Origin: Azolla caroliniana | Taxonomy: Eukaryota > Plantae > Polypodiophyta | NCBI GenBank assembly: GCA_043228905.1 | Contig: JBHGNT010000002.1 | Location: 14,880,001-14,944,000 of the forward strand | Direction of reading: 5' to 3' | Length of the DNA stretch: 64,000 nucleotides | Shown here: positions 1,355 to 52,957 of the stretch, piece after piece | Numbering within the stretch: position 1 is the first letter of the stretch | Layout of the letters: every line of letters begins with the position of its first letter | Made by a program: the position numbers and the translations under genes | Notes under the pieces: generated by a model | Databases searched by the model: none | What the model was told of the DNA's origin: nothing | Seen by the model: only the letters and a program-made list of their open reading frames with translations

Positions 1355-1715
1355 TGTTAGGAACAATACTAAGACAGAGAAGGAATTAGTACTAAATGAA
1401 GGATTAGTACTATGAGAGGTGTAGAACTTCTTTAAGAGAAGGAAGAAGTGAGCGAGACGGAGAGAAAGAGAGAGAGGGAGAGAGGGAGAGAGTGATGATA
1501 AGAAAGATATGTATTATGTGAAGAGAATATACAATGGTGGCTAAAAGGCTTAAGACTAGCGTTGAACCAATTTGGTTCAACATAATGCCTAGTGCCCTCT
1601 TTTATAGTGTTTTCAGGAGTAATCCTGAAGCTTCTAGAATGTTCCAGAGAAAATGGTCAAGATCTTGACCCATATAACCTAAGGTCATGGGTTCGAGTCT
1701 TTCCATATCATGACA
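1355..1715 (-). repeat. 3' LTR of the chromovirus (about 70 bp deleted relative to the 5' LTR)
   Basis: Direct repeat of 6801-7235. Confidence 0.95.
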
Positions 1716-2034
1716 CTATCCCCCCTTTAAAACGACGAGTGTCACGAGTCGTCTTGGATTGAGGACCCGGTTTGTGTGGATATTGACGATGGAAGTCTTC
1801 AAGAAGAGCACGAGCATTGGTCACATTCTCAATCTGTTCCCAAGTACGTTCGTTGGGACTATAGCCTAGCCAATCGATTAGATAGTAGATCTTGTTACGA
1901 ACAATCTTGGAATCAAGGATGGCGGAAACCTCGTACTCCGGCCCATCTTCAAGCTCGATCGAGGGTGGAGGTTGTATAAGACGTCCTGGGATGGTGCTCT
2001 CGTGATAGGGTTCGAGGAGAGAACTATGAAACAC
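1708..2034 (-). pseudogene. Integrase C-terminus with chromodomain
   Basis: EYEVSAILDSKIVRNKIYYLIDWLGYSPNERTWE is a typical chromodomain. It is preceded by a GPY/F-region (cctttccgt on the minus strand). Confidence 0.9.
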
Positions 2035-2481
2035 CGGATGTATCCGAAGTTGAGGAGGTAGATCGAGACGAAAAGCGACATCATTAATCTTTCCGATAAT
2101 ACGGAAAGGACCTAATCACCGATAATCCAACTTCTCACATGGGGGAGTAGTCTTGATGTGCTATCGTAGCAGCCACACCCGATCTCCAATATTAAAATTG
2201 GATGGAAGTCGATGACGATCCGCGTAGACCTTGTGTGTTTGTTGAGCTTGCTGGAGATGAGTAGATAAATCCGCTTGTATCTTGCGTAACTACTCCAAAC
2301 GATCCTCCGCGCACGGATTTGTGGACACCTCTGGGGTTTCAAGTACACTCCACTAGGGGTGACATCCCGTATAAGCATAAAATGGCATAACTTTAGTGGA
2401 TGCATGGATAGAGTTGTTATAGGCAAATTCGGCAAAGTGGAGAATATCTGCCCAGTCATCTTGATGATAGCTGAGAAAGCA

Positions 2482-2822
2482 CCCGAAACTCTAGAAGAAT
2501 CCTTTCCATTCTTTGGCTATGTTTGGAAAGACAAAAACAAGATGACCACAATTCAGGGTATCCATCTAATACTACTGGGTCTCGGTGCCTTTTTATTAGT
2601 GTTCAAAGCACTTTATTTCGGAGGTTTGTATGATACATGGGCACCCGGGGGCGGGGACGTGAGAAAGATTACCAATCCTACCCTAAGTCCAAGTGTAATC
2701 TTTGGTTATCTACTAAAATCTCCTTTTGGTGGGGAAGGTTGGATTGTAAACGTAGATAACCTTGAAGATATTATTGGGGGACATGTCTAGTTGGGATCTA
2801 TCTGTATTTTCGGGGGAATTTG
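2482..2822 (+). pseudogene. psbC: Nuclear plastid DNA insertion (NUPT): photosystem II CP43 fragment
   Basis: [23 protein letters not shown]...[15 protein letters not shown]...GGEGWIV...IIGGHV*LGSICIFGGI matches CP43; TAG stands in place of a Trp codon. Confidence 0.95.
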
Positions 2823-3530
2823 TGGGTGGTAGCTGGAGGAGAGGTTACAAGTGACCTTGAGCATATTAAAAAGGTGCTTCCAGAATTCTGACACGAACTG
2901 GGCTCCACGGTTGCTGATGATACTATCGGGAAGTCCATGATGCCGACATACTTCACGCATGACAATTTCGGCAGTGTCTTCACTGGAGATCTCCTTAGTA
3001 CATGGCAAGAAATGAGCCATCTTCGTATATCGATCGACCACCGTTAGAATCGCATTGAACCCCTTAGAGACTGGAAGATCTGTGATGAAGTCTAGAGCAA
3101 TGGATTGCCACGGCTTGCTTGGAATTGGTAATGGTTCTAATAAACCATATGGATGATGCCTTGGCATTTTCGCTCTGCAGCATGTATCACAAGTCCGAAC
3201 AAAATCCTCAACAAATTGTTGCATACAGGGCCACCAGAATGATCGTTGTACTAAATCTAATGTTTTAGTACTACCAAAATGCCCAACTATATATGTGTCA
3301 TGACAGTTTTGTACTACTTGAAGGTAGCAAGAACCATTAGGAACATACAAAAGTTCTTTAAAGAAGAGTAATCCATCATGGTATTTGAATTGTTGATAGT
3401 CCGTACCTGGTGGTTGCGACTGTGAACACGACGCTCGAGAGGGATCAATTTGTGCTAGTATAGCTTGGGCGAACGCATCTGTCTTCAAGTCTTCACATAT
3501 GGTATCGATAACGCAGGAATCCATGGGCAT
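2823..3530 (-). pseudogene. Gypsy integrase zinc finger and core, truncated by the NUPT
   Basis: CHD...GHFG...CDTC, PWQSIALDFITDLP, SSSYHPQ. Confidence 0.92.
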
Positions 3531-3548
3531 GTCAAAGATCTGTGTTGC

Positions 3549-5080
3549 TTATAGTCGTGTCGGTCCCAAAATGACTTGTTTTTGGTTATCGAAAGCTGGC
3601 TCGCCGGGACGGGGTGCTAGATACGAACGCTGTGATAATGCATCTGCCTTCCCTTGGTGCTTCCCCGAACGATATGTAATTTTGAAGTCGAAACGCGTGA
3701 GGAAGTGGGCCCACCAAGCTTGACGTCGATTCAATACACGAGCATCCTGAAAGTAGGCAAGATTCTTGTGGTCACTAAATATGGTCACTAGATGAGAGGA
3801 TCCCTCCAGAAAATGCCTCCATTGCATAAAAGAATCCACTATTGCCAATAGATCCTTATCATGAATTTCGTAGTTGATTTTGGCGGCGTCAAACTTGCGT
3901 GAGTGAAAAGCCACAAGATGTAGCTTCTCATCATTCCCCTGTTGTGACAGAATGCTCCCCAATGCAAAATCCGATGTGTCAACTTCGATAACGAATGGTT
4001 TTTCCGGATCTACATGAGCTAGTATTGGAGCCGATGTAAATGCCTTTTTAAGACTCTCGAAAGCCATGTCCGTTTCTTCAGACCAGATGAACGGTTGTCC
4101 CTTCCTAGTAAGTTGTGTGAGAGGTAGAACGATCTTTGAGTAATCTTGTATGAACTTCTGGTAAAAATTGGCAAAGCCTAGGAAGCATTGCACATCCCGC
4201 ACCGAACGTGGAGTCTGCCATTCTACCACCGTGTTGACCTTAGCTGGGTCCATGGAGATGCCTTCTGACAAAATGATGTAGCCGAGAAATTCCACTTGGT
4301 TGCACCCAAAACTACATTTTTCCAGCTTTGCATACAGACCATGTTCGCGAAGTCGTTTTAGTACTAATAGTACATGAGAATAATGTTCTTCTTTGGTCTT
4401 CGAATAAACTAGATCATCCAAATAGATGATCAAACAATCATCCAATAGATCTCGGAATATATCATTAGCCATGTGCTGGAAGACTGTCGGCGCATTAATG
4501 AGGCCGAAAGACATGACCGTATACTCGAAGTGTCCATATCTGGTGCAAAACGTGGTCTTCCATTCGTCTCCTGGTCGGATCCGTACGAGGTTATATGCTC
4601 CATGGAAGTCGATCTTCGTGAAGAACCTGGCACCATTAATCCATTCTAAAATACTTGAGATAAGGGGAAGAACATACCTATTCCTGATTGTAACCTTATT
4701 CAAGCCACAGTAATCTACAACGAGACAAAGTGATCAATCCTTTTTCTTGACGAAGAAAATGGGCGCGCTAGCTGGAGATTTCAAATGCCGAATGAAACCA
4801 TTTTCCAAATTCTCCTCTATATAGGCCCAAGGACTTCCAGCTCGGTTGGTGACAAATTGTAGATCGGTCCCCATGGCGGCTCTTTTCCTGGTTGTAAATC
4901 GATGGGGCAATCGTACGGTCGATGATGAGGAAGTGTGTTGTCTTGTACTTTATCGAACACATCGGCGTAATGACGATACTTCTCGGGAAGTTGAATGGTG
5001 GATTCTTCTTTAGTGGTGCTGGAGGGGTTTACTGATATTGCAAAGAGGAACATTTCCTCCTTGCGCCCTTCTTTACGCAA
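3549..5080 (-). pseudogene. Gypsy RT/RNase H
   Basis: FTKIDFHGAYNLVRI, IYLDD, DTSDFALGSIL, SDHKNL; frameshifted. Confidence 0.92.
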
Positions 5081-5548
5081 CTAAAATAGCGAAATGGTTG
5101 CCATCTTCTGAGTTGACCCTTGGGTTTGTCGACACCGGATTTCTCTTGTTCTCCAATCTATGTCTGGGTTATGTAACTCGAACCAGAGTAATCCTAAAAC
5201 TATAGGATGTTCTGGGATACTAATAATATTAAATGATACTACACATGCTAAGTTATCTAGGACAATATTAATGGGCTCTGACTCTTCTATGATATTTCCG
5301 GAAGCAATGGGACGTCCATCAATGACTACTACAGAGGCTGGAGACTGGAGTTTTCTTAGGGATATCTTATGAGCTTGAGCAAATTTCTTATCCATAAAGC
5401 AAGAGTTAGCTCCAGAATCTAGGAGTGCTAGGACATGTACTAGAGGGGTACTTTTAGTACTAACTATTACTTGGGCTACGAACACATCACTAACTTGCTT
5501 AGAGGGAATGGAACCACTAATGGGCTGCACAGATCTAGGGCTATCCAA
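5081..5548 (-). pseudogene. Gypsy aspartic protease
   Basis: ALLDSGANSCFM and IVLGLLWF motifs. Confidence 0.9.
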
Positions 5549-5739
5549 CCAAACGGCTCCTATTTTGGCTGGACTTAGTCGTTTAACTCTTCTTCTAACT
5601 GACTAAGGACATTAAATTTGTTCGCTAGATCTGGGATATTAGTACTATTAGGACTATCAGATATCCTTACTGAAATAGGCTCGGGTTTAGTACAATTAGA
5701 ACTAGCAACTATTTGGTTTACCTGTCTTCTTGGCCTATG

Positions 5740-6726
5740 GGGGGAATTTATTGCGATATGTCCTGGTCCACCGCAGTAAAGACATAGTCGATTTGTACGA
5801 CATCACTGCTTTTCTTCTTCGGATAATGGCCCTCGATGACGTGTAGTGTCAATCTCCATCGGAGTCGAAGTATTCGTTGGAGACGCATTATATGACTCCC
5901 TCGGAAAAGGTCTTGCTACCACTGAGGCATAGGTGGGCTCTGATCTTGCCCTTGGCATCTATAGTTGTCGTTCCGAACGTCGCTCAAAGAGGCGGTTGTC
6001 ACATCTCACCGCACGACCGATTGCTTCTGTTAAGGACTTTGGCTCTTCGGGGTAGGTCAAGAGTAAATCCTTGACGTCATTGTGTAAACCATATCGGAAT
6101 TGCTCCATCAATGCTTGATCATCCCAAGGGATATCGGCGGCGAGTAGGCGAAAATCTGCAGCGTATGCAGAGGCTGGACGGTCACCTTGGCATAATCGCC
6201 GAATTTTGTTGATTGCGGTCCTGATGCTGTCAGTATCTCCGAAACATGCTTTAAACTCACCTAGAAACTCTTCAAAATTATTGAGTAACGGAGATTCCTT
6301 TTCTAATATTGGAGCGAACCATGCCAATGCTGAGCCACTTAACAAAGTGCCTACTAAACCCACTCGTGATGCATCGGTGGGATATCGGGAAGGATGCATT
6401 TGAATAACTAATCGTACCTGGTTAAGGAACCCTCTAAACTACGATCGCGTTCCATCGAACTTCCTGGGAAGGCCAATCTTGGGTTCTTTATGAATCCCTT
6501 CTGTTCCGGACCCTTGTTGTTGCATCGCTACGATGGTTGCTTCGAGTTGTTGCACGCATAACGCAAGTTCCCCATGCTGTTGTTGCGTTTGCTGCTTTTC
6601 TAAGGAGATTTGCTGAAGATCCCCCAACAACTGTTGGTTTTCTTGTTCCAAAGCATGGAACTTCTCTTTGAAGCATTGAAATTCCAAGAAAACAGATTGA
6701 TATTCTTCAGCGCTAACAGTGGCCAT
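5740..6726 (-). pseudogene. Gypsy gag with zinc knuckle
   Basis: KEPKIGLPRKFDGTRS, LLSGSALAW, YAADFRLLA; CLYCGGPGH knuckle near 5750-5790. Confidence 0.88.
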
Positions 6727-6786
6727 GGGATGAAAGAAAAGAGGAATAAGAGATTAGTAGGAAATGAGAGAGACAGAAGGTAGGGG

Positions 6787-6798
6787 AAATTGGTTCAA
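6787..6798 (-). promoter_or_regulatory. Non-tRNA PBS, candidate self-priming site
   Basis: Minus strand TTGAACCAATTT, 2 nt after the LTR, is complementary to LTR 7019-7008 (AAATTGGTTCAA). Confidence 0.8.
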
Positions 6799-6800
6799 AC

Positions 6801-7235
6801 TGTTAGGAACAGTACTAAGACAGAGAAGGAATTAGTACTAAACGAAGGATTAGTACTATGAGAGGTGTAGAACTTCTTTAAGAGAAGGAAGAAGTGAGTG
6901 AGACGGAGAGAAAGAGAGAGATCGAGAGAGGGAGAGAGTGATGATAAGAAAGATATGTATTATGTGAAGAGAATATACAATGGTGGCTAAAAGGCTTAAG
7001 ACTGGCGTTGAACCAATTTGGTTCAACATAATACCTAGTGCCCTCTTTTATAGTGTTTTCAGGAGTAATCCTGAAGCTTCTAGAATGTTCTAGAAAATCT
7101 GGAATATACATTAATTTCCTATAATAAAATGTAAATGAAAATAATATCCTACGTATTACAATAGATGATCTAATGGTCAAGAGTTCGACCCATATAACCT
7201 AAGATCATGGGTTTGAGTCTTGCCATATCATGACA
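6801..7235 (-). repeat. 5' LTR of the chromovirus, TATAAAA at 7052-7046
   Basis: TG...CA termini, TSD, TATA box. Confidence 0.95.
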
Positions 7236-14201: not shown

Positions 14202-17200
14202 TGTAGAAAGTAGCGTGCGGAAGCAGGTATGAAGACCGAACAGAAGGAAGGAAACTTAGGTTCAATGGAGAGCTTGGGCTTACACGGTATACGCGGGAGA
14301 GACAGAGAGAGAGAGAATGCAGAAAACTATATTCAATAATAATACTCAGTCTGTACATAAGACGTGCTTAAGTGAACACTTTTATACAAGTCCTAGAAGG
14401 ACTGACCGAAGTACTGACAGTACTTCAATGCTCATTAAGAGCTCCTACACTAACTCCCAAACATATTCCTCACGGAATATCTTTCCTAACGGCCTCCCGG
14501 TTTACGCACTCGGCCTAACCGATCGAGTCCTCGGCTTCTTCAGCCGATCCGGCCGATGTTGAGCTTGTCTCTCAACACTCCCCCTCAAGCTCAACTTGAG
14601 GCTCTTTGGGATCTTCACAGCGCCGGTTCCTCCTGGCTTCTCGCCTTGCTCGCGCTCCTCGACCTGTTCAACTACGCGCGCTTTGACCCTTCCGGTCTGC
14701 TTGTCTGCTCATGCGGCCTTTATCAACTCTTTTGCTATTGCGGTGTCGACACTTGTTCTGCGGCCTTTTCTTCCGCTTGGGCCTCGGTTGATTCAACATG
14801 TCTGAATCAAACATCCGAACCGACTCTGCTACCTCCGATTGGTTTTCGCTCTCGTCCGAGTTGGCTGTCTCCAACTCGTCTTCAGTCTTCTCACCCTCGA
14901 TGGCGTCGTCTCCCCTATGCGTGGTTGGCTTCGGCTCTCTCTTTCGGCTGCTCCCCTTCTGTCCGCTTCCGAACTTTTCCGCGGGTCCACCCTCGGCTTC
15001 TTCAGCCAATCCGAAGTCGTCAACCGACTCAATGTCATGGTCTCCGCTCCTTTCCTGCTGCCTTGCTTGGTCGTTCGGGACTGTTCTCCCCCTCAAGTTT
15101 GGCACGTCGAGGTGACGCAATCTGAGTGCACCGGAGAATTGCCGCAACTTGTCCAGACCAAGGGGCTTAGTGAAGATGTCGGCAGTCTGCCGATCCGTTG
15201 GAATGTATTGAAGTTCGACTTCACCGGAAAGGACACGCTCACGGATGAAATGGTAGTGCACCTCAATGTGCTTGGTCCGTGCGTGGAAGACGGGGTTCTT
15301 CGCGAGCTGGATGCTGTTGAGGTTGTCGTAGTAGATCGTCGTCGGATCTAACACCTCCACCTGCAGGTCCTTAAGTAGCCGCTTCAACCATATGGCTTCG
15401 CATGTCACGACAGCCGCTCCTCGGTACTCAGTTTCGGTGCTCGACAGTGCAACTGTCGGCTGCTTCTTACTGCTCCACGCGATCGCGGCACTCCCGAGGG
15501 AGAACGCGTATCCAGACGTGGATCGGCGATCGGCGGCGTTGCCAGCCCAATCAGCATCGGAGTAGCCGACTAATTGCGCGGCTGCATCGGTCCGATATAG
15601 CAGTCCTCGGTCCTTAGTGCCGTTGACATACCGAAGTATGCGTTGCGCACACTGAAGGTGCTCCTCGGTAGGTCGCGCCATGAACTCACTGATCACTCCG
15701 AACGGATAACTGAGGTCGGGTCGGGTGATGGTCAAGTATATGAGGCTTCCGACAATTTGTCGAAACCTCGTTGGGTCGCATACCTTTCCCGTATCGGGAC
15801 GAAGCTTGACGGTTCTGTCTAGAGGAGTCGAGACGGACTTACAGTCGGCCATCCCGAGTTTCAAGAGCATACTCAGCACGTAATGACGTTGGCTGATCAA
15901 TATGCCTTCGGGGGTACGGATCACTTCGATCCCGAGGAAGTAATGAAGGTCCCCCAGATCCTTCATGTCGAACGATGCCGCAAGTTGGACCTTCACGTGG
16001 TCGATTTCACCGAGGTCGGCGCCGGTGATGACCAAGTCATCAACATATAGTAAAATACTAACCGGTCCGAGTCGACCTTTCCGGATGAACAGGGAAGAGT
16101 CCGATTTTGACGTGACGAAGCCCAACTGACACAGTTGTTGCGTGATCTTCGCGTTCCAGGCATGCGGGGCTTGCTTCAGTCCGTAAAGGGACTTCTTCAA
16201 GCGGCATACGGCCGAGGAGTTCGTTCCGGAGTGAAATCCAGGGGGCTGTACCATGTACACCTGTTCCTCAAGGTCACCTTGCAGGAACGCATTCTTTACA
16301 TCCATTTGATGTAGGTGCCACCCCTTCGCCGCAGCTACTACGAGCAAAACACGGACGGTCGTCATTTTCGCGACCAATGCAAACGTCTCATCGTAGTCGA
16401 TGCCGTGTTTCTGCACGTAGCCCTTTGCCACTAGCCGAGCCTTGTACCGGTTGACTGAGCCATCGGTGTTGTACTTGACTTTGTACACCCATCTACACCC
16501 AATCGGCTTCACACCCTTTGGTGCATCAATCAGGTCCCAGGTCTCGTTCTCCGCCAATGCGTGCATCTCTTCCTCCATCGCGGCACGCCAATTCGCGTCC
16601 TTCGCCGCTTCTGCGTAGCTCTCCGGTTCACGCACTTCCGCTATACGGGTCATGTACGCATAATGATGCGCCATGTACTCGTTGTATCCGAACCGCAAAA
16701 CAGGATTCTTCTGGCGGGTAGATCGGCGTAATCTCTCATTAGCCGATGTCAAGGCCTTCTCGGTCGACGCGGTCTTCACCTTTAAAGACTTGTCACCGGT
16801 TCCCTCAGAGTCGGACTCGCGTCGGTCTGACTCGTTCCTTTCCATGCCGGAATCCGACACCCTCTTCTTCCCTTTCTCTTTGCGCGTAAGCCGTCTCCTC
16901 GGCTTCCTGCGCGGGGAATGCACGGCCGAGTCTCCACTACTCGTCGGCTCTTCATCGGACTGGTCGTACCGACTCAGTCGTCCAATCGGTCCACTTAATC
17001 GGAGTGAAATCGGACTCTCTTCGCGGGTCTTGATTTCAGGCTTATCCGGAGGCATCTCGGCCTCGCTGACCTCATCGTCAGAGCTCGGATTGGAGTTGGG
17101 GTTCGGAGTCGGAGGCTGGTACCAGGACGCGGGCTCGTCAAACACAACGTCGCGGCTGACACGCGCTTGTTTGGTGCGAGGGTTATAGCACTTATAACCC

Positions 17201-19827
17201 TTCTGCTCGTCCGAGTAACCAACCAAGATGTATTTCTCGGCCTTTGCGTCCAGCTTCCTCCTTTTCTCCTTCGGTACATGCACATACGCAATGCTACCGA
17301 ACACCCTCAAGTGTCGCAAGTTCAGCTTCGTTCCGAAATATAGCTCGTGCACTGACACTTTGTCTCTGATCCGGTTCTGGATGTATACCGCGGTCCTTAC
17401 TGCCTCGGCCCAATAGAACTTGGGCAAGCTCTTCTCCTCCAGCATTGCCCGTGCCCCTTCCACAACTGACTGATTCTTTCTCTCGGACACGCCGTTCTGC
17501 TCTGGCGTGTATCTACAACTGAATTCGCGCCGAATTCCCATTTGTTGTAGATAACCGTTGAATTGACCGGAAAAGTACTCTTTCCCACCATCCGACTGCA
17601 GACACTTGATCTTTTGTCCCGTTTCCGTTTCCACGAACCCTTTGAGGTCCCGGAAACAGTTGAAGACTTCGCTCTTCCTCTCAATGAGGTAGATCCACGT
17701 GTGCCGCGTGTGGTCGTCGATGAAGGAGACGAAATATCGGCTCCCGCCAAGACTAACGTTTTGTGCCGGCCCCCATACATCGGAGTGTATAAGGTCGAGC
17801 TTATTCCGGCTCCGATTTCGCTCGTTTGGGAAAGGAAGTCGGTGTTGCTTCCCGAGCTGGCAGGCTTCACAAATTTGTGCCTTTCGGCCACTAAATTTGG
17901 GCAATCCGAATACTACCTGTTTCGATTGCAGATCTTGAAGCCATTGGTGGTTGACGTGGCCTATCCGCTTGTGCCACAAGTCGATGTCTGACTCGGTCTT
18001 TTGTCCCTTTGCGAACATTGCGGTGCCGCCGTCAGTGGAGTCGAGGATGAACATCCTCCCGTCTCTGCGCCCTTGCGCAATCACACGGCCTTCTTCCTCA
18101 ATGAAGCACCCGAGGTGTGTAAACCAAATCTTCATCCCTTGGTCGACGATCTGTCCGACCGAGACCAAGTTTTTCGTGATTGTCGGAACGTGCAACACGT
18201 TCATGAGTTTCCCTTTCTGCCCGACATGGCTAAGGGGAACTTCTCCGACATTCGCGATCGGATGCGGAGTGTCGTCTCCTGTTGCGACTACTCCAGGTTG
18301 TATCGGTTTTTCAAGGTACAAGAACCACTCCTTATGGCTCGTCATGTGGTTTGACGCGCCGGAGTCTACGTACCACACCTCGTCCGATCTCGGGGTGCTC
18401 TGTTTCATTGAGTTTGCTTCGTGTCTCATCACGAAGGCAGTCCCTTCTCCAATTCTCCCGGAGTCTTTGGCGTAGTGCGATCGCTGCCGATTTCCCTTGT
18501 CGGTATGTCTAGAGCCGCTCCCGGAACCAGTTCTTTCCGAATCGGCGCGCTTCTTCCAGCACTCACTTTCCCTGTGGCCTTTCTTGCCACAGTACCAACA
18601 CTCCGCGATGGCCTTCCCTTGCCAGTTCTCATCGCTTCGACTCCCGGAGCTGTCGGCATCACTTCGGTGCCTTCTTCCTTGATCTCGTCGGCCACCTCCA
18701 TTGCGCGCCGACTCGCCTCGTCCTCCACATCCACGGCGCCTATCTCCCTCCGTGCACAACATTCTGCTGTCGGTGTGCGTGCTTGTAGACGCACCCGCGT
18801 GGTTCTCCTCTACCAGGAGCATCGATTGTAAGTCGAAAAAGGACGACGTATTCTCCCGGGTATACACAGCCGTTCGGAACGCTCCGAACTTCGACGCTAA
18901 ACCTCCGACACAGATCTGGACCATCTCGCTCTCCTCGATGTTCACCTCTATCGAGGCGAGGGAGTCGCAAATATCCTTGATCTTAGAGGTATAGTCCGCC
19001 ACCGACAAATCGCGTTGTCGTAGGTTGCTCAACTCCTGTCGAAGCTAAAGCTTCCTGGCTGTGGTGCTCGCGGCGAAAATCTTCTTCAGATTTTCCCACG
19101 CACCCTTCGACGTCTTTGCATCCCGAACATAGCTCAATAGTTGTTCGCCCACACACGACGCGAAGCAGTATAATACCCTGCTCGCCGATTGCTCCCACGA
19201 CGGGAAGTCTCTGAGTGTTGATTCGGGTGCCGCATCATTAGCTCCTTCGACATAACTCCAGTAGCCGTGTCTGAGCAGGTACTGGTGCATCTTGTAGGAC
19301 CAAGACGCGTAGTTGGTTCTGTCGAGCTTCTCTGATGGAAGCGAGCTCGCCATGCCTCTATCCATCGTTCTTCTTGTTCTTCTTTGTCAAGTTGTGTCGA
19401 CTGGAGAGAGGTTCTCAATCCTTGCACTCTGATACCATGTAGAAAGTAGCGTGCGGAAGCAGGTATGAAGACCGAACAGAAGGAAGGAAACTTAGGTTCA
19501 ATGGAGAGCTTGGGCTTACACGGTATACGCGGGAGAGATAGAGAGAGAGAGAATGCAGAAAACTATATTCAATAATAATACTCAGTCTGTACATAAGACG
19601 TGCTTAAGTGAACACTTTTATACAAGTCCTAGAAGGACTGACCGAAGTACTGACAGTACTTCAATGCTCATTAAGAGCTCCTACACTAACTCCCAAACAT
19701 ATTCCTCACGGAATATCTTTCCTAACGGCCTCCCGGTTTACGCACTCGGCCTAACCGATCGGTCCCAACCGATCCAGTCCTCGGCTTCTTCAGCCGATCC
19801 GGTCGATGTTGAGCTTGTCTCTCAACA
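14202..19827 (-). mobile_element. Young, nearly intact Ty1/copia element
   Basis: LTRs 14202-14577 and 19438-19827 differ by about 3 substitutions and one 14-bp indel. TSD CATAC. PBS tggtatcagag at 19437-19427. PPT agggggag. Confidence 0.97.
14668..19365 (-). CDS. copia gag-pol polyprotein with one premature TAG at ~19045
   Basis: ORFs 19045..19365 and 14668..19032 are in frame. CWYCGKKGH knuckle, VDSGAS, HHCC, integrase, YVDD, YSDADWAG, ADIFTK. Confidence 0.93.
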
Positions 19828-20030
19828 CATACCGTAGAGGCTGAGTGCCCCAAAACCGACTTCACCTGGTCCCAGATAATCCAGCCCTCTCTCAAGGAAG
19901 AAATTTTTTTTGACATGTCATCTATATGTAAAGTATGAAAGGATTTCCATGTATCAACAGACGATGTTGACCCTGCATCGAGCTTGGCCCAATCCAATCT
20001 CGTACGGGACCCCGACATGAGCCCTAACGG

Positions 20031-29786: not shown

Positions 29787-30439
29787 GTTTCCAAGGCATC
29801 ACAAATGCACGGGCACCTCTTTCATCAAGAGGACTATGTTCCAACATTATGGACACTAATTTGATCGTATACAATTCCACATGATAAAATCCTCTCCCCA
29901 TAAATTGGACATCTATTATCCTACGAATTAAGCCATGCATAGAGGCTTGTAAGAGATCTTTGCATTCACCTCTATTCGGCCGAGTTGGGTTAGACGATGA
30001 ACTTCCAACTTGAATTCAGCCTCCTCTTTAGGCAAGAATACTATCGACTGAGGCTTCTCCTCAGAATTTGTTGGTGGGGATACTTCTTTAGAGTTGCCCT
30101 GTTGTGTCGTTGAGGTAGTTGTCTGCTGCACTCTCTCTCTTCCTTGTTCCTCCATCTCGTAAAAAATCCATAAGATATGTAACTTGTTTGTATGTGTGAA
30201 AATTTGTAAGGGATATAATATGTAATCTTATGTATTAATATATGTGTATGTGTATATACATATAATATGTAATTTATTTATTTACGTATATTTTTTGTGT
30301 TTGGTATGTATACATGTATGCATTTGTATATAATTGTGTGTATAATGATATATGTGTTTAATATGTAATATATAAAATATGTTTGTAATAATGTGTAGTA
30401 TATATGTATGCATATGTATATATATATAATATGGTTGAT

Positions 30440-30485
30440 CATACATACATACATACATACATACATACATACATACATACATACA

Positions 30486-30521
<36 letters not shown>

Positions 30522-30547
30522 CATGCATACATACATACATACATACA

Positions 30548-30583
<36 letters not shown>

Positions 30584-30649
30584 CATACATACATACATAC
30601 ATACATACATACATACATACATACATACATACATACATACATACATACA

Positions 30650-30680
<31 letters not shown>
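30440..30680. repeat. (TACA)n microsatellite in an AT-rich tract
   Basis: Visible tetranucleotide run. Confidence 0.98.
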
Positions 30681-30682
<2 letters not shown>

Positions 30683-31725
30683 GTATGCATATATTTATAA
30701 ATGTAGTATGCAATGTATTTATGTATATGTATTTATATTTATTTTTCTGGAAAATATTTCATTAGTTATAAGAAGTTATTACCAGCATGTTAACCTACCG
30801 TCAAGCTACCATTGATATGTTGCATTCTTCCTTAGGTCCCCATCCCTAAAGGATAAATAGTATCAACACTCAACCACTCCATAACCTAGTTATGTGATTA
30901 GTGGTGGGAACAACCATACTGGTGGTGCTAAGCACCATTTGAGTCTTGCATTTTGTAATGTGAGAAAATGGGCATTCTTCTAATAGGTATTAAATTCGAG
31001 GCATTGCAACACTGCATCATTTGTCTCACATTTAATTTCATCATTACCGCCCTTTCAAGGTATGCCCCATTTGCATCTAGACATTCCGCACACTTTCCAC
31101 TGGATGAACAATAGTATTACCAAACACCTAGCACACCTAGCAGTCCAAATAAAACACATTGTGGTGTTTTGCATAGCAACTCCCACACTTCTTGCATTGC
31201 CTTTAACATATAAGGAGCTTCCATATGACTTCTTTACACCATTGTTATCCTTCCTCTCTGAATTCTAAGAATCGTATCATTTGGACATGCCTCATATGGC
31301 TACATCATTTGTGCCACTGTAGCTCATACTATCATACCCCACAAAAAATTGCCATCCCTAAACATAAAGGTTAAAATTCGAAACACTCATCTCCAAACTT
31401 GTTGTGCAACTTGATATTCCAACAAGCAATGTTTCAATGTCTCCGCCTGTCAACTACACTAGATGCATGTGGTCGGTCCAACTTATTGTTGAAGCCACTG
31501 GCCGACTGGTAATGTTGTATGTATTACTAGCCATTGGAAGACATTTATTTTCATATCTTGCTTCATTTTCCATAATGCTCTCGAAAACATTGCTAGGAAT
31601 TCGGTTGTGACCCCTTGATGGGTCCAAAATTGACTAGCCCGTGGTGTAGTCCTGCGTTGAGCTGCCAAAATGTGCCTTCCAATCTAAATTGAGTATTGAA
31701 AAACACCACAACTTTTCCCGCACGG

Positions 31726-38014: not shown

Positions 38015-40864
38015 CTTAGATCCATCATAAGCAAGGACCCTTATTTTAGAGAATGTAGCATATTGCAAGATCTCTAGATGTATCAGGGCTCTACATATAA
38101 TGTCATCTTCCTCCACATCATAGTCTTGAAATTGTCCGCAAGACAAATGTTCCCGTACCCCCACAAACACTTGAAGCCTTGTAAATGCCCCTTCCTAGTT
38201 GGGAGGATTAAAGGACCATACCGTTGACGGTGAGTGCCCCAAAACTGACTGCACCTGGTCCCACATAATCCAACCCCCTCTCAAGGAAGAAAAAAATTCT
38301 GACCTGTCATTTATATGCAAAGTATGATCAGATTTCCATGCATCAACGGACGCTCTTGGCCGTGCATCGAGCTTGGCCCAATCCAATCTCATACGAGACT
38401 CCAACATGTGCCCTGACGGCAAACTCATATTCGGATTCCACACTAAGTGTTGTCTCAAGTATTCCTCCTCACATGTTGGGACACCATGTCCCAACCCTTT
38501 ATGTACATGCTCTCACACTCTTAGAAGAATATTAAAAAATTTGTCTTCCCAATTCCTCGTCATAACATGTTTCTTGTCTAGTATAAAGATTTATCTTATG
38601 CTATCACTCCATAATCCACCCATCATCGGAGTACAACGATACAATCATAGATTGACATATTCACATTCATGGGGTTTCCCATTCGAATGCATACGAATGC
38701 ATCGTCAAGTATTCGTTTATCCCAAAAAAGAAGAAGGAGAGACTCCAAGAACTCCCTCGTTTTTTAATTTACTAGATAAAAAAACGGGACTTCACAGTAA
38801 AAAGGGACATTAAAAGAGGGACTATAAAAAGGAACATTAAGAGGTACTTCACACTAATAAAATTTTATAATAAATATAAAAGTATTCGTTTTATTTTTAA
38901 TAAATAAATAAAATACAATAAAGGTTCATTAATTCCTCACTTTTTATACTCTAAAAAATTATAGATATTTTTATTTTGATATTAAAAATTGGACTTCACA
39001 CTAATCATATTTCTATATTAAATATACAAATATTCATTTTAAAAAACAATTTAATTAATTAAAATAAAGGTTCATAAACTTCCCCATTTTTTATTTGACA
39101 CTATAAAACAGAGTCAATACTAATCATATGTATATAATCTATTAATGAATGATTGTTCTTTTTCTAGTGAATTAAATTTATTTAAATAAAAAATGAATTA
39201 ATTAATATTTTATATATTTTTGTAAAACGAATGGTTTTAAAATATTCTTGGGGCCATTTCATATTCTCGAATATTGGGAATATCACGCATGGAGAATATG
39301 ACGAATATCACGCATGTGTCAATCTATGGATACAATCTTTGCATAAGTAATTGCTTGCAAGGGGCATGTCTTGGTAAAAGGCCATGAACTATTACCTTTG
39401 CTAAGAAGGCCATGGATTGGACTAATGGATCAATAATCCCCAGATCACCATATTGCTTCGGGGTTATCAGTTTACACCATGCCACCTTCGCTCTTATATG
39501 ACTCCTATCCTCCAATGTCCATATAAAATTCTGAACCAGCCTTCGAATTTGTCCAATACATGATTTTGAAAAGATCCAAGATGAAGCTATATATCTATCA
39601 CAAACATGACAATAGTCATGTCAAGCTTTGAACTCTTGACCTCTTGACATATATAGTCAACTGTTGTGTTTCAACCAAGAAATCCAAATATATGGCCATG
39701 TTATATATATCTTAGTAGATTATTAGTAGATTATCTATTTCAAGTTCTAGGAGTTTTTAGAAAGTTCTAGAACTAGAAGGTTCTAGAGGGTTCTACAATA
39801 TTCTGCCGAATATTCTCCAAAATATTCTAATGCATGTACTTCGACTCACAGTATAAATACTTGTAACCTCCTTGGTCCTTTTCAAGGGATTCAACACCAG
39901 TCACTGACATGTCAATCTAATATTCTTGTTTAGCTCCATCTTCTCTCCTTGATTTACGTCTCTATCTTTATGCTCTTGTATTGTTCCTAGCATCTTAAGT
40001 TCCTCATCTCGTTGCTCCGAACTTCCCAAGTTTCTAGCCTCATCACATTGAGTTCCACGTTTGTAACCTTATCGGTCGTAGCCTCGTCATTCGTGCTTCT
40101 TCGTAGTCTAGGGTTGGTGTGTCCGTGACAGTTTGAATCCCTTGAAACTAGAAGCATTACCCATCTTCGTCATCGCCCTTCCTTCTAGAGTTACCATTGT
40201 CACTGTTATTGGTTCTAGAGTTACCATCATTAACATCCCTTCGTTTTCTATCTTCCTCACCATCTCTATCTCTTAGTTTCTTTTCATCATCGTCTTTGTC
40301 TTTTCTCTCCTAGTTTCTTGTCATCATCATCTCTATCTCTACACTTCTTATCATCTTCCATTTCCCTATCTCCTAGTTTCTTCTCATCATCATCTCTATC
40401 TCCTAGTTTTTTCTCATCCTTCACATCTCTATCTCCAAGTTTCTTATCATCATCATCTCTATCTCTACACTTCTTATCATCTTCCACATCCTTATCTTTG
40501 CATTTTTTGTCATTGTCATCCTTCCCCTTGTGTTTCCTACCATTTTCATCTCTATCTATGTGGTCCTTATTATCTTCGTCAGTTTCTCTACATTCCCTAT
40601 CACCTTCATCCCTGTCTTTGAGTTTTCTATCATCCTCTGTATATATGTGTCTTTGTGTTTCTTCAGAACCTCAACATCTCAATCTCTATGTTTCTTATCC
40701 TCTTCATCTCTTTCTCTGCTTCCATCATTTCCATAGTCAAAGTTGTTGCTTCCAAAGTCGCTTCGTCAACATCATTGCCTTCATTGCTTCCTCTTTGACA
40801 TCATCATCTTCAACCCTCTTGTTGTCTTCATCAACACTACTTTGCCTAACCGTCGTTGTCTTCA

Positions 40865-41468
40865 AGTGTTCCAGTTCCCGGTGAGGACCGTGCAGGGTCG
40901 CTCACATCCATTGGTGTTCGTGTCTCCTATGAGGACCAAACATGGTCGCTCATGCCCTTTGGTGTTCACGTCTCCGGTGAGGACCATACATGGTCTCTCA
41001 CGCTCGTTGGTGTTCCAGTTCCATGTGAGGACTGCACATGGTCGCTGACGTCCGTTGGTGTTTGTGTCTCCAGTGAGGGTTGCTCATGCCCGTTGGTGTT
41101 CCAGTTCCTAGTGAGGACCGTGCAGGGTCGCTCACATCCATTGGTGTTCCTGTCTCCGGTGAAGACTGTACATGGTCTCTCATGCCTTTAGTGTTCGTGT
41201 CTCTATTGAGAACCGTACATGGCCGCTCACACCCATTGGTGTTCCAGTTCCCGGTGAGGACCGCACATAGTCGCTCACATCCATTGGTGTTCCTATCTCT
41301 AGTGAGGACTGCACATGGTCACTCACGTTGGTGTTCTAGTCTCCGATGAGGACCGTACATGGTTGCTCATGCTCGTTGGTGTACCAATTCCTGGTGAGGA
41401 CCGTACATTGTCGCTCACACTCACGTTGGTGTTCCACTCTCCGGTGAGGACTGAACATGGTTGCTCAC
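40865..41468. repeat. 48-bp tandem repeat array (continues at 42250-42390)
   Basis: Unit approximately cggtgaggaccgtacatggtcgctcacatccattggtgttccagtctc. Confidence 0.9.
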
Positions 41469-41479
41469 AAGATTTAGAA

Positions 41480-42100
41480 ATTATAATGTACACTCTTTGA
41501 TATGATTGAAAAATCCAAGATAACAAAGAGAACAATGAGGGGTGGTACGTTTTATTAAGAAAGAAATAGAGAAGTATGTGTTCATCATAAAAAATGATGA
41601 ACATAAATGTTGCATATGGCTTGAAATAGAAACCCCTACTGATTTGCCAACTTTCGTAGTTGGATGTTACATTCCTCATCAAGTTTCTAACTTTTATGCT
41701 TATTTGGATAAAGACCAACATTTTTCCAATCTAGAAGATGATATTGCTTATTTCAAATCCGAAGGGGTAGTTATTGTCTTTCGGTGACATGAATGCCCAT
41801 ATAAGAAGTTTCCAACTTGATGCGCCACAATCTTTCATTCCACATATCTCAAGGATGCAAGAGGATATACAACATATAGTCTCTCTTCTATTGATGAAAA
41901 ATATCTTGACCAAATTGGGAAGTTACTCCTACAAATGTGCAATAGTAACTGAATGCTTATTGCAAATGGTTTATCCTTATGGCCCAATGTTAATGGTTTT
42001 ACATGTAGAAAACACAATGAAAATAGAGTGATTGACTATGTGCTACTTTCCAAAGGTATTTTGGATTTGATCATAGGACTTTATGTATTGACCTCAAATG
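41480..42100 (+). pseudogene. Non-LTR retrotransposon APE-like endonuclease fragment
   Basis: IWLEI...VVGCYIP, VIVFGDMNAH, LIANG, FTC...VIDYVLLS; frameshifted. Confidence 0.75.
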
Positions 42101-44336
42101 TATGTATAGGTTTCATTATGAGAAGGCCATTGAAGATAATAAACAACTACCCTTGAGCATGAACCTTAAACAAACGGTCATGTATTCCAAGATGGTCAAG
42201 GATATGTTACAAATGACAAACATACAACATGGTGCCCCACTAGAATGCAAATTGGTGTTACAGTCTCCGGTGAGGACTGTACATGGACACTCATGCCCAT
42301 GGGTGTTCTAGTCTCCGGTGAGGACCACACATGGTCGCTCACGTTCACCCGTGCTCCTATTTCTGGTGAGGATTGCTCATTGTCACTCACTCCTCAACGT
42401 ACTTTGATTTTCTCTTTTAGCTCACCCCTACACCATGCTTTTGAAAAGGCGGCCATAAAGGGGAGGATAATGTCACAGACATGACGACACCAGTCATATC
42501 AAGATTTGAACTCTTGACCTCTTGACATATATAGTCAAGTGTTGTGTTCTAACCAACAAATCCAAATATATGGTCATATTATGTATATCTTAGTAGATTA
42601 TTAGTAGATTATCTATTTCAAGTTCTAGGAGTTTTTAGAAAGTTCTAGAACTAGAAGGTTCTAGAGGGTTCTACAATATCATTGACACGTCAATCTAGTA
42701 TTCTTGTTTGACCCCGTCTTCTCTCCTTGATTTCCGTCTCTGTCTTTATGCTCTTGTATTGTTCCTAGCGTCTTAAGTTCCTCATCTCGTTGCTCCGAAC
42801 TTCCCGAGTTTCTAGCCTCATCACATTGAGTTCCACGTTTGTAACCTTATCGGTCGTAGCCTCGTCATTTGTGCTCCATCGTAGTCTAAGGTTGGTGTGT
42901 CCATGACAATATCACATCGTAGATAATAGCATAGGATTGGCAACTATGACTCTCCCGACAAAGATAGTTTAGCGTGGTTCCACAAGAATAACTTTTTCCT
43001 CAAAGTTAATAATAATGGTGCGGCATGTAATTCTTAGACCAAATAAATCCCAACCCGCACTCCAAGATATTGAACCGCAACTCCTCTTTGAGTCCACTAT
43101 AAAGTATGATGGGGTGTCCAACAAAGCGGCAGTTCCTTGCTCACCCAAAATGCAACAGTTTAGGCCCAATTTAATTTATCTCCACGATGCTATACAAAAC
43201 TATAACAAAGGCCCTTCCACTTGTTGCAAATTTGTTAGAGTTTTCATACATATATAATGCAGTATCATCAGCAAATTCCGAGTCCAATATATGTTGTCTA
43301 TGCATTGGCATCGCCAAACCAGGCAAACCTATAGATTGTGATAATATAAATAGATGCATTGCTTCCGTAAACAAAAGGAACAAAAATGGTGCAAAGGGAC
43401 ATCCTTGATGGATAGATCGAGTAATTTTAAACCGAGGTCCTACTCCGTCTACCAACAACACCTGAGTATGTGCATTTCTATAAAGACAAGAGAAACCCTT
43501 AATCCATGCCGTGTTGAAGCCGAGGTGATGCATTATTGAGATATCAAGCTTAACTATATTTAGTTAGTTAGTCAACACACGTAACTTAAGTTACCTAGAT
43601 AGAATCTAGTTAGTGTGTTGACCTTAAAGCCTTAAATAGGATTTTGTACTTGAGTGGGATACATTGTAGATCCTCCACTACCAAGTATATTTAATATAGG
43701 ACTTACACCTTTGTACCTATATTCTACTCACACATGTGCACCTTTGCACATGAGCTGTATATATGCCTCATTGTGGGTATTTTTGTATTTGATGATGCTT
43801 TTTAATATAGAGGAAAGGTCTCCCATCTTGTCTCGTTGTTTATAAGTCTTCTTTTTCTCTTCCTCTCACACTCTCACACTCTCACATACGTACACACACA
43901 TCACATAATCTTCCGCCACCTAATCACATCATTAGGTACTAATTAACCCGTAGTTAATTACCTAATTCTTAACCAAGTAATTCTTAACATGGTACTAGAG
44001 CGTGTGGTTTAGACATCCACTAAGCCCACCCGACTCTTCGTGATTGTGTGTTCGAAACGACGACAACAAATTCCGGTTATCTGCTACCGTAGTGCCGCTA
44101 CGTAGCACGTGTACGTGACGGAATGAAGAAAAATGAAATAGGAAGACATTAAAATCAACATGAACACACAAATGGGTAGCTCGCTCCCTAGTGATCGGAG
44201 CAATTATTCATCTTGGCAGAACAAGATGAACCAATACCTAGTTGGCCAAGGGTATTGGAGCTACATCAATGGCACACTCGAAAGCAAACCCGACATCACA
44301 AACGCCAACTACCCAACGTGGGAGAAAGGACCAAGT

Positions 44337-50253: not shown

Positions 50254-52957
50254 TGTCGTGATGTTTTTGACACATAGTGTGAAACCACCCTGAAAAGAGA
50301 ATAAAATAGTGGTCCAAATAAACTAATTTTCTTAAGTCAGCTGGAGTAATAAATGAAAGGATAAAAAGTTAGAAGAGGTTATCGAAAGTAGACAAAAATA
50401 GACAAAAAGATGGGAAAAGAAAAACTAGCCGTGGATATGAGGAGCAAGGTCGAGTAAAAAGCTCATAATTTCCTCGTAAAATGTCCAAATTAGAAATGAA
50501 AAGATGCATAAGAAAGCTAACCAAAAGAGATTTCCAAGATTATCTTGCATGTGAAATTTGAGGCTAGAAAACAGAAAAAGTGAGGAAAAGAAAAGTCGAC
50601 TCATATAGAGAAGGTTTTTTTTAGGGGGGAAAGGCAAGCAATCCTAAACCTATAAATAAGAGCCTATTCTAGTGAAGAAGGGGGGGGAGGGAGAAGGAAC
50701 GCAGAAGCTCTACTCAATTGGAAAGTGGAAGAAGAAGGATCAACAACATCGAGAGGCATCATCAACAAAGAAACTCCTTCTATACTCCACTCTCTTCTTT
50801 CCTCCACCTCTCTTCCCCCATTCCTTTATAAACAATCCTTCATATTCGCATCCAACCCATTCTAACATGATTCTCATATTATAAAAGAATCTATTATATT
50901 GATATAAACTAATGTTTTCTTTCATCTACTTGTCTTATGTGTAAATCTTGATTGTGTTTATTTGTTGTCATTTGTGCTTATTTGTTTGTGTGTCTTGCAA
51001 CAAGGGAGCGTTTCGGGCTTGCCCATGCACGTCTCCTTTCACAAAGGCATTCAAACTTACGTGTCTTGTGTGTTAGTGTAAATCTTGCTTGTGTGTTCGT
51101 GTGACTTGTGGCAAGGGAGCGTTCGGGCGTGCCCATGCACCTCTCCTTTCACAAAGGTGTTCGAAATCGTGTCTTGCGTGTTAGTGTAAATCTTGCTTGT
51201 GTGTTTGTGCGACTTGTGGCAAGGGAGCGTTCGGGCTTGCCCATGCACCTCTCCTTTCACAAAGGAGTTCGAAATTGTGTCTCCCGTGTGTAAACCTTGT
51301 TTATGTGTTCGTGCGACTTGTGGCTAGGGAGCGTTCGGGCTTGCCCATTCACCTCTCCTTTCACAAAGGAGTTCGAAATTGTGTCTCCCGTGTGTAAACC
51401 TTGTTTATGTGTTCGTGCGACTTGTGGCTAGGGAGTGTTCGGGCTTGCCCATGCACCTCTCCTTCCACAAAGTCGTTTGAAATTGTGTCTCCCGTGTGTA
51501 AACCTTGCTTGTGTGTTTGTGCGACTTGTGGCAAGGGAGCGTTCGGGCTTGCCCATGCACCTCTCCTTTCACAAAGGCGCGAAATTGTGTCTCCCGTGTG
51601 TAAACCTTTCTTGTGTGTTCGCGTTGTAGTAGTGTAATTCGTACACTACGTGAAAAATTACATTTTTGGTCTCTCTGGATAGGACATGGAGTACCCGGTG
51701 AGAACCGGAAGAAGGAACCGGTAAGGACCAAAACCGGCAAGGAGACCCGGCAAGAGCCGGATGAAGAAGGCCGGTGAGAGTCGGTGAGAAATGGACAAAG
51801 AGATCGGTAAGGAGGTCCCGGTAAGAACCGGACAAAGAAAACTATCAAGCACCGGATAAAGCAGAACCAGAAAGAGCCGGATGAAGAAGGCCGGTGAGAG
51901 TCTCTCACCGGATGAAGAGACGTATTTGTAAATAGAAGAAAGTATAAAAATATATATATTGCATGCATAGGGCAATATTCGAACCTTGCACCTCCATGTT
52001 AATAATGTTAAGCCTTATCATTATAGTAGGGTATTATGAATTTTAAAGTTATACTAAACTTTATTCCATGTAAAATTTCTATACATGCATGGTACAAAAG
52101 TTATTCATGCATAGACACTCAAGTTAGAAAGAAAAGATGAGATAGAATGCTAATCATGCACATGCAGTGTGCATGAAAACTAAAGATAGAAAAAGCGTGA
52201 TGCTTGCATGTGATAAACTTAGACTCTTCCAAGGGTTGATTAATATAAGATGTATAGAGGTTGTTGATTATTTTTACAAGGGTTGATTAATATAAGATAA
52301 TTGTGGGATTCACGAATTTGTTAACTATTCTTTCTCTCTTAATTTGATTACCCACTACTACACTATACTCGTGGGATTCACGAGTTTTTCATATCTTTCT
52401 TTCTTACAATATATTTTATATTCTTAATTGCCTTAGAATTTTCATTCCTCCTAGTCCAAAACCCTAGCGGTTCCCACCCGACTCACGCAACGATCCGGAG
52501 CCGTAAGGCACGACAGCGTGTCTTGTAACAAGGGAGCGTTCGGGGCTGCCCATGCACCTCTCTTTTCACAAAGGCATTCGAAACTTTGTCTCTCATGTGT
52601 GTAAGTAAGCCTTTTCCTTGTGTGTTCGTGTTTCTTGTAACAAGGGAGCATTCGAGCTTTGCCCATGCACCTCTCTTTTCACAAAGGAATTCGAAACTTT
52701 GTCTCTCATGTGTGTAAGTAAGCCTTTTCCTTGTGTATTTGGGTGTAAGCCTTACTCACGTGCATTCATTCACCTTGTGACTAGGGGTTGATTCGGGCTT
52801 GCGCATGCACCTCTGCTTCTCACAAACACGTTCGAATACTTGTGCCTTGTTTGTGTAAACCTTCCATGTGTTGTGCATGTGAGCCCTATGTCCTTCCCGT
52901 CCATAACCTTGGTGGTTCTGCCTCACGATCTGCACATAGTGACAGATTTTCACGACA
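50254..52957. mobile_element. Large solo LTR with ~110-bp tandem repeats
   Basis: 8-bp terminal inverted repeat TGTCGTGA...TCACGACA. 4-bp TSD atgc/acgc. Repeats at 50985-51620 and 52516-52860. Confidence 0.75.
51625..52515 (-). mobile_element. Solo LTR nested in the 50254 LTR
   Basis: tgtagtag...cacgaca, 4-bp TSD GCGT on both sides; homologous to 12265-12480. Confidence 0.8.

Follow-up and report, generated by a model that had tools for sequence, protein, structure and literature searches.

A non-coding long terminal repeat family of Azolla caroliniana, likely self-primed and likely mobilised by Tf1/Tcn1-type chromoviruses

How does a retrotransposon multiply if it encodes no proteins and has no primer-binding site (PBS) of the transfer RNA (tRNA) type? 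The question is raised by an element at 39591..42913 of a 64,000-nucleotide stretch of the Azolla caroliniana genome (GenBank assembly GCA_043228905.1, contig JBHGNT010000002.1, positions 14,880,001 to 14,944,000 of the forward strand), which is called the window throughout and is numbered from its first base. The element is one old copy of a non-coding long terminal repeat (LTR) family, of which the genome, searched over 523 Mb, carries hundreds of copies. We think it likely, on the sequence evidence, that this family starts reverse transcription with its own RNA, in the manner of Tf1, and that chromoviruses of the Tf1/Tcn1 type in this genome mobilise it in trans. A start without tRNA is likely because the PBS matches the probable first 11 bases of the RNA and both halves of this match change together.

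Copies were collected with a pattern of U5 and leader in which the PBS was left free, and 195 leader junctions were found. An exact U5-PBS pattern gave 122 genome matches, the A-type primer (defined below) with its downstream bases 406 LTRs, and the junction of polypurine tract (PPT) and U3 508 matches, coding elements included; the reversed control of each of the four patterns gave 0. The family sample comprises 81 loci, namely 80 of the 100 places listed for the free-PBS pattern and the window copy. Two PBS types stand before the same leader, TTGAATCCCTT (subfamily A, to which the window copy belongs) and TTGTTCACCTT (subfamily B). The primer was anchored through the bases downstream of it, independently of the primer itself, in 70 of the 81 copies. 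In 69 of these the type of the primer agrees with that of the PBS (46 A/A, 23 B/B); the discordant copy, L103, is a mis-anchored U5 duplication. Four positions differ between A and B on both sides of the duplex and are compensated, which bears out an earlier suggestion, made from the window alone, that the pair co-varies. Pairing extends over 11 of 11 positions in 43 anchored copies and over ten in 14 more, and the 11-mer starts 32 nt from the TATA box in 64 of the 70. Further primer/PBS pairs are found in the coding chromovirus families numbered here 1, 1b and 3. Within a single genome, then, a parasite lineage and several coding families show compensatory changes, which lend comparative support to self-priming.

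Beyond the 11 nt, pairing continues for 0 nt in 62 anchored copies, 1 nt in seven and 4 nt in one, the window copy. There 40133-40147 is the exact complement of 39880-39894, each sequence occurring once in the window and 39880 lying 28 nt past the TATA box at 39852. The 15-nt self-complement of the preliminary description is therefore exact in this copy, but the family-wide duplex is 11 nt long and the additional four bases are copy-specific: 40144-40145 deviate from the family leader, thereby stretching the match, and 39880-39883 pair only here. A 15-nt primer was accordingly rejected as a family feature (extension by 4 nt in 1/70). Because the longer pairing is peculiar to the window copy, the primer most likely begins at 39884. 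The parts of this copy are as follows.

39591..39595, no strand: left target-site duplication ATATC, identical to the repeat at the right flank
39596..40130, + strand: 5' LTR, 535 bp, subfamily A, with 70-72% similarity to the U3 of coding chromovirus family 4 over its first ~190 nt
39852..39859, + strand: TATA box, 32 nt upstream of the predicted primer
39884..39894, + strand: predicted self-primer, equal to the predicted first 11 nt of the RNA (transcription start inferred)
39900..39918, + strand: R arm of a second predicted duplex, pairing with the end of U5 (-22.3 kcal/mol, z -3.1)
40111..40129, + strand: U5 arm of the second duplex, partner of 39900..39918
40133..40143, + strand: PBS, 2 nt behind the LTR, complement of 39884-39894
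40144..40860, + strand: conserved leader, then pyrimidine-rich repeats of ~30-33 nt
40866..41468, + strand: array of ~48-nt repeats with a predicted 9-bp stem-loop in each, present in all complete copies
41470..42240, + strand: dispersed repeat whose insertion is specific to this copy; likely a fragment of a broken LINE (long interspersed nuclear element) endonuclease
42251..42400, + strand: leftover units of the stem-loop array
42457..42470, + strand: PPT, adjoining the 3' LTR
42471..42908, + strand: 3' LTR, 438 bp, with a 100-nt deletion between 42678 and 42679
42909..42913, no strand: right target-site duplication ATATC, matching the left flank

Direct inspection of the sequence found the LTRs, the ATATC duplication and the PPT where they had originally been placed. 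The 5' LTR begins with TA, a decayed TG, and finishes with CA, and it is 93.3% identical to the 3' LTR (405/434 aligned bases). The 100 nt missing from the 3' LTR, overlooked at first, are the counterpart of 39801-39900, and the TATA box and primer site are gone with them. Daughter copies would inherit promoter and primer from the 3' LTR, and with both lost there the window copy has probably reached a dead end.

Could a tRNA or tRNA fragment prime at the PBS after all, the match to the LTR being a by-product? We regard this as very improbable. In a partial set of 39 tRNA sequences with 12 anticodons (from 30 of 62 matches), no 3' end fits the PBS, the best 3'-anchored match being 2 nt; within this set the earlier statement that the PBS is no tRNA complement is upheld. 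The incompleteness of the set favours the tRNA, as does an internal stretch of tRNA-Arg(TCT) that matches the PBS region of the window copy over 10 nt and the A form of the family over 8 nt. This match, however, lacks the LTR-proximal bases, where the 3' end of the primer must sit, and the PBS changes in step with its own LTR and differs between families. Of the tRNA-like U3 described previously, neither ARAGORN nor Rfam found a trace; what remains is a weak local alignment with tRNA-Ile(TAT) that scores above shuffles (33 against a shuffle maximum of 30 in the window 3' LTR, and 36 against 26 in the neighbouring chromovirus described below). Nor did Rfam detect any known RNA family in the element.

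Copies of the family carry LTRs bounded by TG...CA, a PPT and target duplications of 5 bp. A completeness filter was passed by 25 of the 81 loci (9 A, 16 B), and in 16 of these the target-site duplication is exact (4/9 A, 12/16 B). LTR identity is 0.887-0.987 in the complete A copies (median 0.949) and 0.951-0.995 in B (median 0.972); interiors measure 0.6-4.8 kb, whole copies 1.5-5.8 kb and LTRs 396-535 bp. In searches by tblastn with the proteins of families 1, 2 and copia, none of the nine complete A copies gave a gag or pol match, and B copies retain a chromodomain remnant of ~150 nt in 15 of 16 with no other gag/pol. The lack of gag and pol first reported for the window copy thus extends, this remnant aside, to all 25. 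One complete A copy, L054, has an interior of 4.8 kb, likewise with no gag/pol matches. The provisional label LARD/TRIM-like, referring to large retrotransposon derivatives (LARDs) and miniature terminal-repeat retrotransposons (TRIMs), had to be dropped, the copies mostly being 1.5-3.6 kb, longer than a TRIM and shorter than a LARD. A LARD exceeds about 4 kb and has a long interior that is structured and conserved, and 24 of the 25 complete copies are below 3.6 kb; total length, LTR length and the lack of a tRNA-type PBS all set the family apart from TRIMs.

The interior of complete copies consists of the conserved leader, pyrimidine-rich repeats, the array of ~48-nt units and a short 3' tail. 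The segment 41470-42240 of the window copy was matched near the PBS in one of 80 other family loci, and the same repeat occurs in unrelated flanks at 74-84% identity. Its catalytic motifs are, we presume, of the LINE endonuclease type, and its score against Pfam Exo_endo_phos (E 0.26) is below the cut-off; it is likely a LINE endonuclease fragment. Because it is single-copy within the family, dispersed in unrelated flanks and likely of LINE origin, it is an insertion and not family cargo, and the supposition that the element carries cargo does not hold family-wide. A sequence 74% like it (L084:1351-1846) lies ~550 nt behind the PBS of another copy.

Among 544 array units (22-26 nt long), the pair at stem position 7 is A-T in 298, G-T in 155, G-C in 51 and A-C in 9, and loops range from 4 to 6 nt; these pairs and the loop variation suit an RNA hairpin on the sense strand. 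A protein hidden in the repeats was considered and rejected: six window open reading frames (ORFs) have no Pfam match, the longest ATG frames vary from 31 to 272 aa across copies, and units differ by 2-nt loop changes. None of the four ORFs tested in 40144..40860 has a Pfam match.

Which chromovirus could supply the missing proteins? The nearest one lies in the window itself.

1355..7235, - strand: comparison element, chromovirus family 1, with primer at about 7019-7008 and PBS at about 6798-6787

Its Pfam domains are those of a chromovirus and it has its own 12-nt primer/PBS match; family 1 is abundant (8032 candidates), and intact copies exist. The preliminary description was right that it shares the LTR/PBS junction with the element and differs in primer and PBS, but what the two have in common is limited to short signals, namely this junction and a short post-primer motif. 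LTR comparison produced only low-complexity or 13-27-nt matches, and family 1 has no match at the window PPT-U3 junction. It was thus rejected as the closest partner, and other families are better helper candidates because it lacks real LTR homology to the element.

Coding elements with matching LTR termini, whose existence had been proposed as a check, were found in chromovirus families 2 and 4. Five of the first 30 PPT-U3 junctions (among the 508 matches) belong to family 2, and 18 of 20 B-type junction regions are coding; in the 14 that have both LTRs these are 96.9-99.7% identical. Family 2 encodes a gag of 341 aa and a pol of 1198 aa in the order PR-RT-RH-IN-chromo (protease, reverse transcriptase, RNase H, integrase, chromodomain). 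Subfamily B has tail, PPT, U3, primer and PBS in common with family 2 (tail 74%, U3 82%, promoter-primer 95%) and resembles A in R (82%), U5 (82%) and leader (88%), unrelated modules scoring about 55-65% by the same measure; the end of the primer is where its resemblance passes from family 2 to A. Looking for A primers followed by an atypical sequence led to locus L299, whose U5 led to coding family 4 (402 candidates). The family 4 primer is B-type, its PBS is exact in 8/9, and its U3 start is the closest to the window copy (72% over 208 nt of the PPT-U3 junction, E 3e-23); one complete copy measures 5.4 kb with an LTR identity of 94.6%. At L302 and L313 an A-type U3 and primer are joined to a family-4 R-U5 within about 10 nt past the primer end, and at L341 an A-type tail and U3 start are joined to a family-4 U5. 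One core occurs with three U3 types in 61 classified 5' LTRs, of which 24 are window-like, 23 family-2-like, 13 family-2b/C-like and one unassigned.

Families 1, 2 and 4 are self-complementary at the PBS. The candidate helpers show the Ty3/gypsy order PR-RT-RH-IN with a group I chromodomain (Pfam), and in families 1 and 2 the translated chromodomain has three aromatic cage residues, Y, W and Y. Their named protein matches are amphibian, fish and chytrid at 51-61% identity versus seed plants at 39-46%, a comparison of matches and not a tree with named references. As separate observations, subfamily C (L204, L206, L207, L208, L210, L212) has the A primer and a B-like chromodomain tail, the distal 112 nt of its U3 being 83% like coding family 2b (L209), and one family-4 element ends in a tandem array with a unit of ~173 nt (distal U3, primer, U5) and at least six repeats (L332:5849-6887).

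The A primer was found in no coding element sampled: downstream of the PBS in 0/81 family and 0/30 atypical loci, upstream of PPT junctions in 0/24 that are neither family 2 nor B among the first 30, in 0/18 A- or C-type loci (two more, making up a set of 20, are coding families with other primers), and in 0/15 atypical primer sites. A parasite whose own RNA provides the primer in cis would not depend on having that of its helper. One might instead take the family for ordinary internal-deletion derivatives of one coding A-primer chromovirus, now extinct or missed, with self-priming simply passed on and no switch of helper; the searches for such an element relied on exact-match patterns and samples and not on whole-genome annotation, and both the chromodomain remnant of B and the relatedness of A's U3 to family 4 would suit this origin. 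Yet leader, pyrimidine repeats and array are without counterpart in families 1 or 2, no gag lies behind the PBS in the 81 loci or the 30 atypical ones, at least three U3 types are found attached to one core, and the likeness of B jumps from family 2 to A where the primer ends, so that we judge this explanation improbable.

Mobilisation in trans of a self-primed RNA would proceed as follows. Transcription would start at the first base of the 11-mer (39884 in the window copy); two sets of assembled contigs under the same species label, X1 with 10 short family-like pieces and X2 with 0, cannot show this start. The helper's RNase H would cut the RNA after base 11, freeing the self-primer, helper Gag would package the parasite RNA, perhaps through the stem-loop array, and helper integrase would insert its DNA. 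Co-packaging with helper RNA likely led to swaps of tail, PPT and U3, in some cases together with primer and PBS, in which the parasite would have retained its R-U5, leader and array. We infer that template switching in co-packaged particles made the chimeras; because self-primed strong-stop DNA would end at base 12, primer and U3 would be copied from whichever RNA accepts the jump.

Beside the primer, R and U5 can form a duplex with z < -2 in 21 of 24 A and all 21 B copies (medians -22.7 and -25.5 kcal/mol, z -3.7 and -4.3). The corresponding duplex is weaker in the coding families, -12 to -14 kcal/mol in family 2 and -4 to -6 in family 1. A plausible helix for the third duplex of the Tf1 'pretzel', between leader and LTR, recurs at the same place across copies. 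Separately, families 2 and 2b and subfamily B contain a PBS-like copy just upstream of the primer (L189, L209, L049, L177; 24 nt before it), predicted to form a 9-12-bp hairpin across the predicted start (shuffle fraction 0.000-0.001); in family 1 this hairpin is weaker (0.037), and in A, 1b and 3 it does not reach significance. It could hide the 3' primer copy from the PBS.

Another kind of trace is left at the PBS. Among 32 A-type PBS junctions without the usual leader base, 19 of the 30 retrieved run into the reverse complement of U3, with L227 probably a twentieth. Among the 100 listed exact U5-PBS places (of 122 matches), comparison by hand counts 10-11, about one in ten, as such PBS-to-inverted-U3 junctions. 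Four B-type fold-back junctions are known, all with a family-2 U5 and two of them identical. Within the fold-back loci (L223-L252, L283-L286), L243, L246 and L252 keep a full LTR before the junction, and in L240 and L247 R-U5 is inverted, both breakpoints lying within the paired region. As read from these junctions, the two sequences do pair physically, be it in plus-strand strong-stop DNA or later in the chromosome, and the two extra changes behind the PBS of the window copy may be a short version of the same event.

If chimeric LTRs and inverted junctions arose by DNA recombination between inserted copies, self-priming would hold and the helper could not be named. The inversions at L240 and L247 point this way; fold-backs are far commoner in the older A than in B, none of the four type-B junctions comes from B, and the ~10 nt past the primer that A and the helpers have in common are possible microhomology. 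On the other hand, the joins in L302 and L313 fall where strong-stop DNA would end, and B multiplied in chimeric form, its 5' and 3' LTRs matching and its target-site duplications exact in 12 of 16 copies. At least the B swap should for this reason have passed through reverse transcription, and we consider DNA recombination an unlikely, though by no means negligible, source of the chimeras.

Several points weigh against self-priming with mobilisation in trans. The completeness filter was failed by 56 of the 81 loci. Mean pairing of primer and PBS is 10.2 of 11, against 8.5 +/- 0.2 with shuffled partners (maximum 9.4 in 10,000), which speaks for self-priming, but this permutation figure overstates independence because the A/B split is one evolutionary event. 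Private mutations in A affect the primer only in 29 cases, the PBS only in 14 and both in two, with 0 compensated, and in B the primer only in ten, the PBS only in two and both in 0, again with none compensated; they fit decay after insertion and add no support. Co-conversion of primer and PBS at the level of single copies was not seen among the anchored copies. Folding of the whole array is no better than that of shuffles (z -1.3 and -0.7), the unit search pattern fixed the outer stem positions and the 544 units are not independent, which leaves the array as a packaging signal at the level of a hypothesis. The third duplex reaches z < -2 against shuffles in 1/24 A and 0/21 B copies with the one U5 window tested. 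As no coding A-primer element was found, the helper of A is deduced from 70-72% U3 similarity and three chimeric loci. Shared modules and chimeras bear on mobilisation in trans indirectly. Finally, fold-back junctions could also form at the DNA level after insertion.

A bolder extension of mobilisation in trans is that the parasite hops between helpers, a portable RNA core having been plugged repeatedly into the PPT-U3 ends of different self-priming chromovirus families. We offer it tentatively, as possible but somewhat doubtful. The core would be the R-U5 duplex, stronger than the helpers' own, with a variable number of stem-loops, 2-26, serving as a multivalent packaging signal, and strand transfer at the primer cleavage site would join it to new PPT-U3 ends. 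Self-priming, which needs no shared tRNA or primer, would make such hopping possible and, if this is true, would mark the genome with fold-back DNA that can be counted.

The window contains other repeats. A copia element at 14202-19828 has a stop-free frame of 1458 aa and is probably young because its LTRs are identical over 300 nt. A plastid photosystem II (psbC-like) fragment lies at about 2440-2830 inside the integrase region of the neighbouring family 1 element, on the opposite strand (Pfam PSII, E 2e-9). At 50975-51625 there is a tandem repeat of 104-110 nt, and at 30400-30760 an 8-nt microsatellite-like array.

Tools that find a PBS from a list of tRNAs would miss elements of this kind, and the PBS-to-inverted-U3 junction could elsewhere reveal self-priming from genome sequence alone. 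Being small and non-coding and having a strong priming duplex, the element offers a ready reporter for testing the mechanism in a plant, and it lets one ask what a chromovirus must see in order to package and prime a foreign RNA.

In Tf1 from S. pombe, the first 11 RNA bases prime after being cut by RNase H (PMC7175516), and the primer sits in a structure of three duplexes (PMC10085805). Like Tf1/Tf2 and the Tf1/sushi group, the Azolla element has 11 nt at its predicted 5' end that can pair with a PBS closely following the LTR, has an R-U5 duplex next to them and lacks a tRNA-type PBS (PMC7175516, PMC10085805, PMC4600332). Tf1, however, encodes its own proteins and its cleavage was shown experimentally, whereas the present element is non-coding, is known from sequence alone and yielded no detectable third duplex. 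Self-priming was predicted for most plant Tcn1 elements by Neumann et al. (PMC6317226), while Novikova et al. detected no evidence of priming in SM-Tcn1 (PMC2864245). Coding families 1, 2 and 4 resemble the plant Tcn1 clade in self-complementarity at the PBS, and families 1 and 2 also in the aromatic-cage chromodomain; as far as the available text goes, the Tcn1 accounts cover coding elements and give a prediction, not compensatory changes (PMC6317226, PMC2864245, PMC3350952). TRIMs are defined as shorter than 1 kb, with repeats of 100-250 bp and a tRNA PBS (PMC6934838), and for short non-autonomous LTR elements of sugar beet modular reshuffling and template switching are described and tRNA-derived PBS motifs listed, the string 'self-prim' having 0 occurrences in the accessible text (PMC13570524). 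The family shares with TRIMs the LTRs, PBS, PPT, target-site duplication and absence of genes, and is distinguished from them by its size, mostly 1.5-3.6 kb, and its self-complementary PBS (PMC6934838, PMC13570524).

In a literature search that left most subscription papers outside, no report combining self-priming with LTR swapping was found. Each of the two is known; the Azolla family adds a non-autonomous partner of plant chromoviruses that is likely self-primed and for which candidate helpers can be named. In soybean, Du et al. (2010) reportedly described an autonomous/non-autonomous pair with LTR swapping, and Dasheng of rice is said to be a non-coding partner bearing LTR modules of the coding family RIRE2. 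The Azolla family is like these pairs in that a non-coding partner carries LTR modules of a coding family and LTR parts are exchanged. Unlike in those systems, reportedly primed by tRNA, the swapped module can here include the primer itself, the join falling at the predicted cleavage site.

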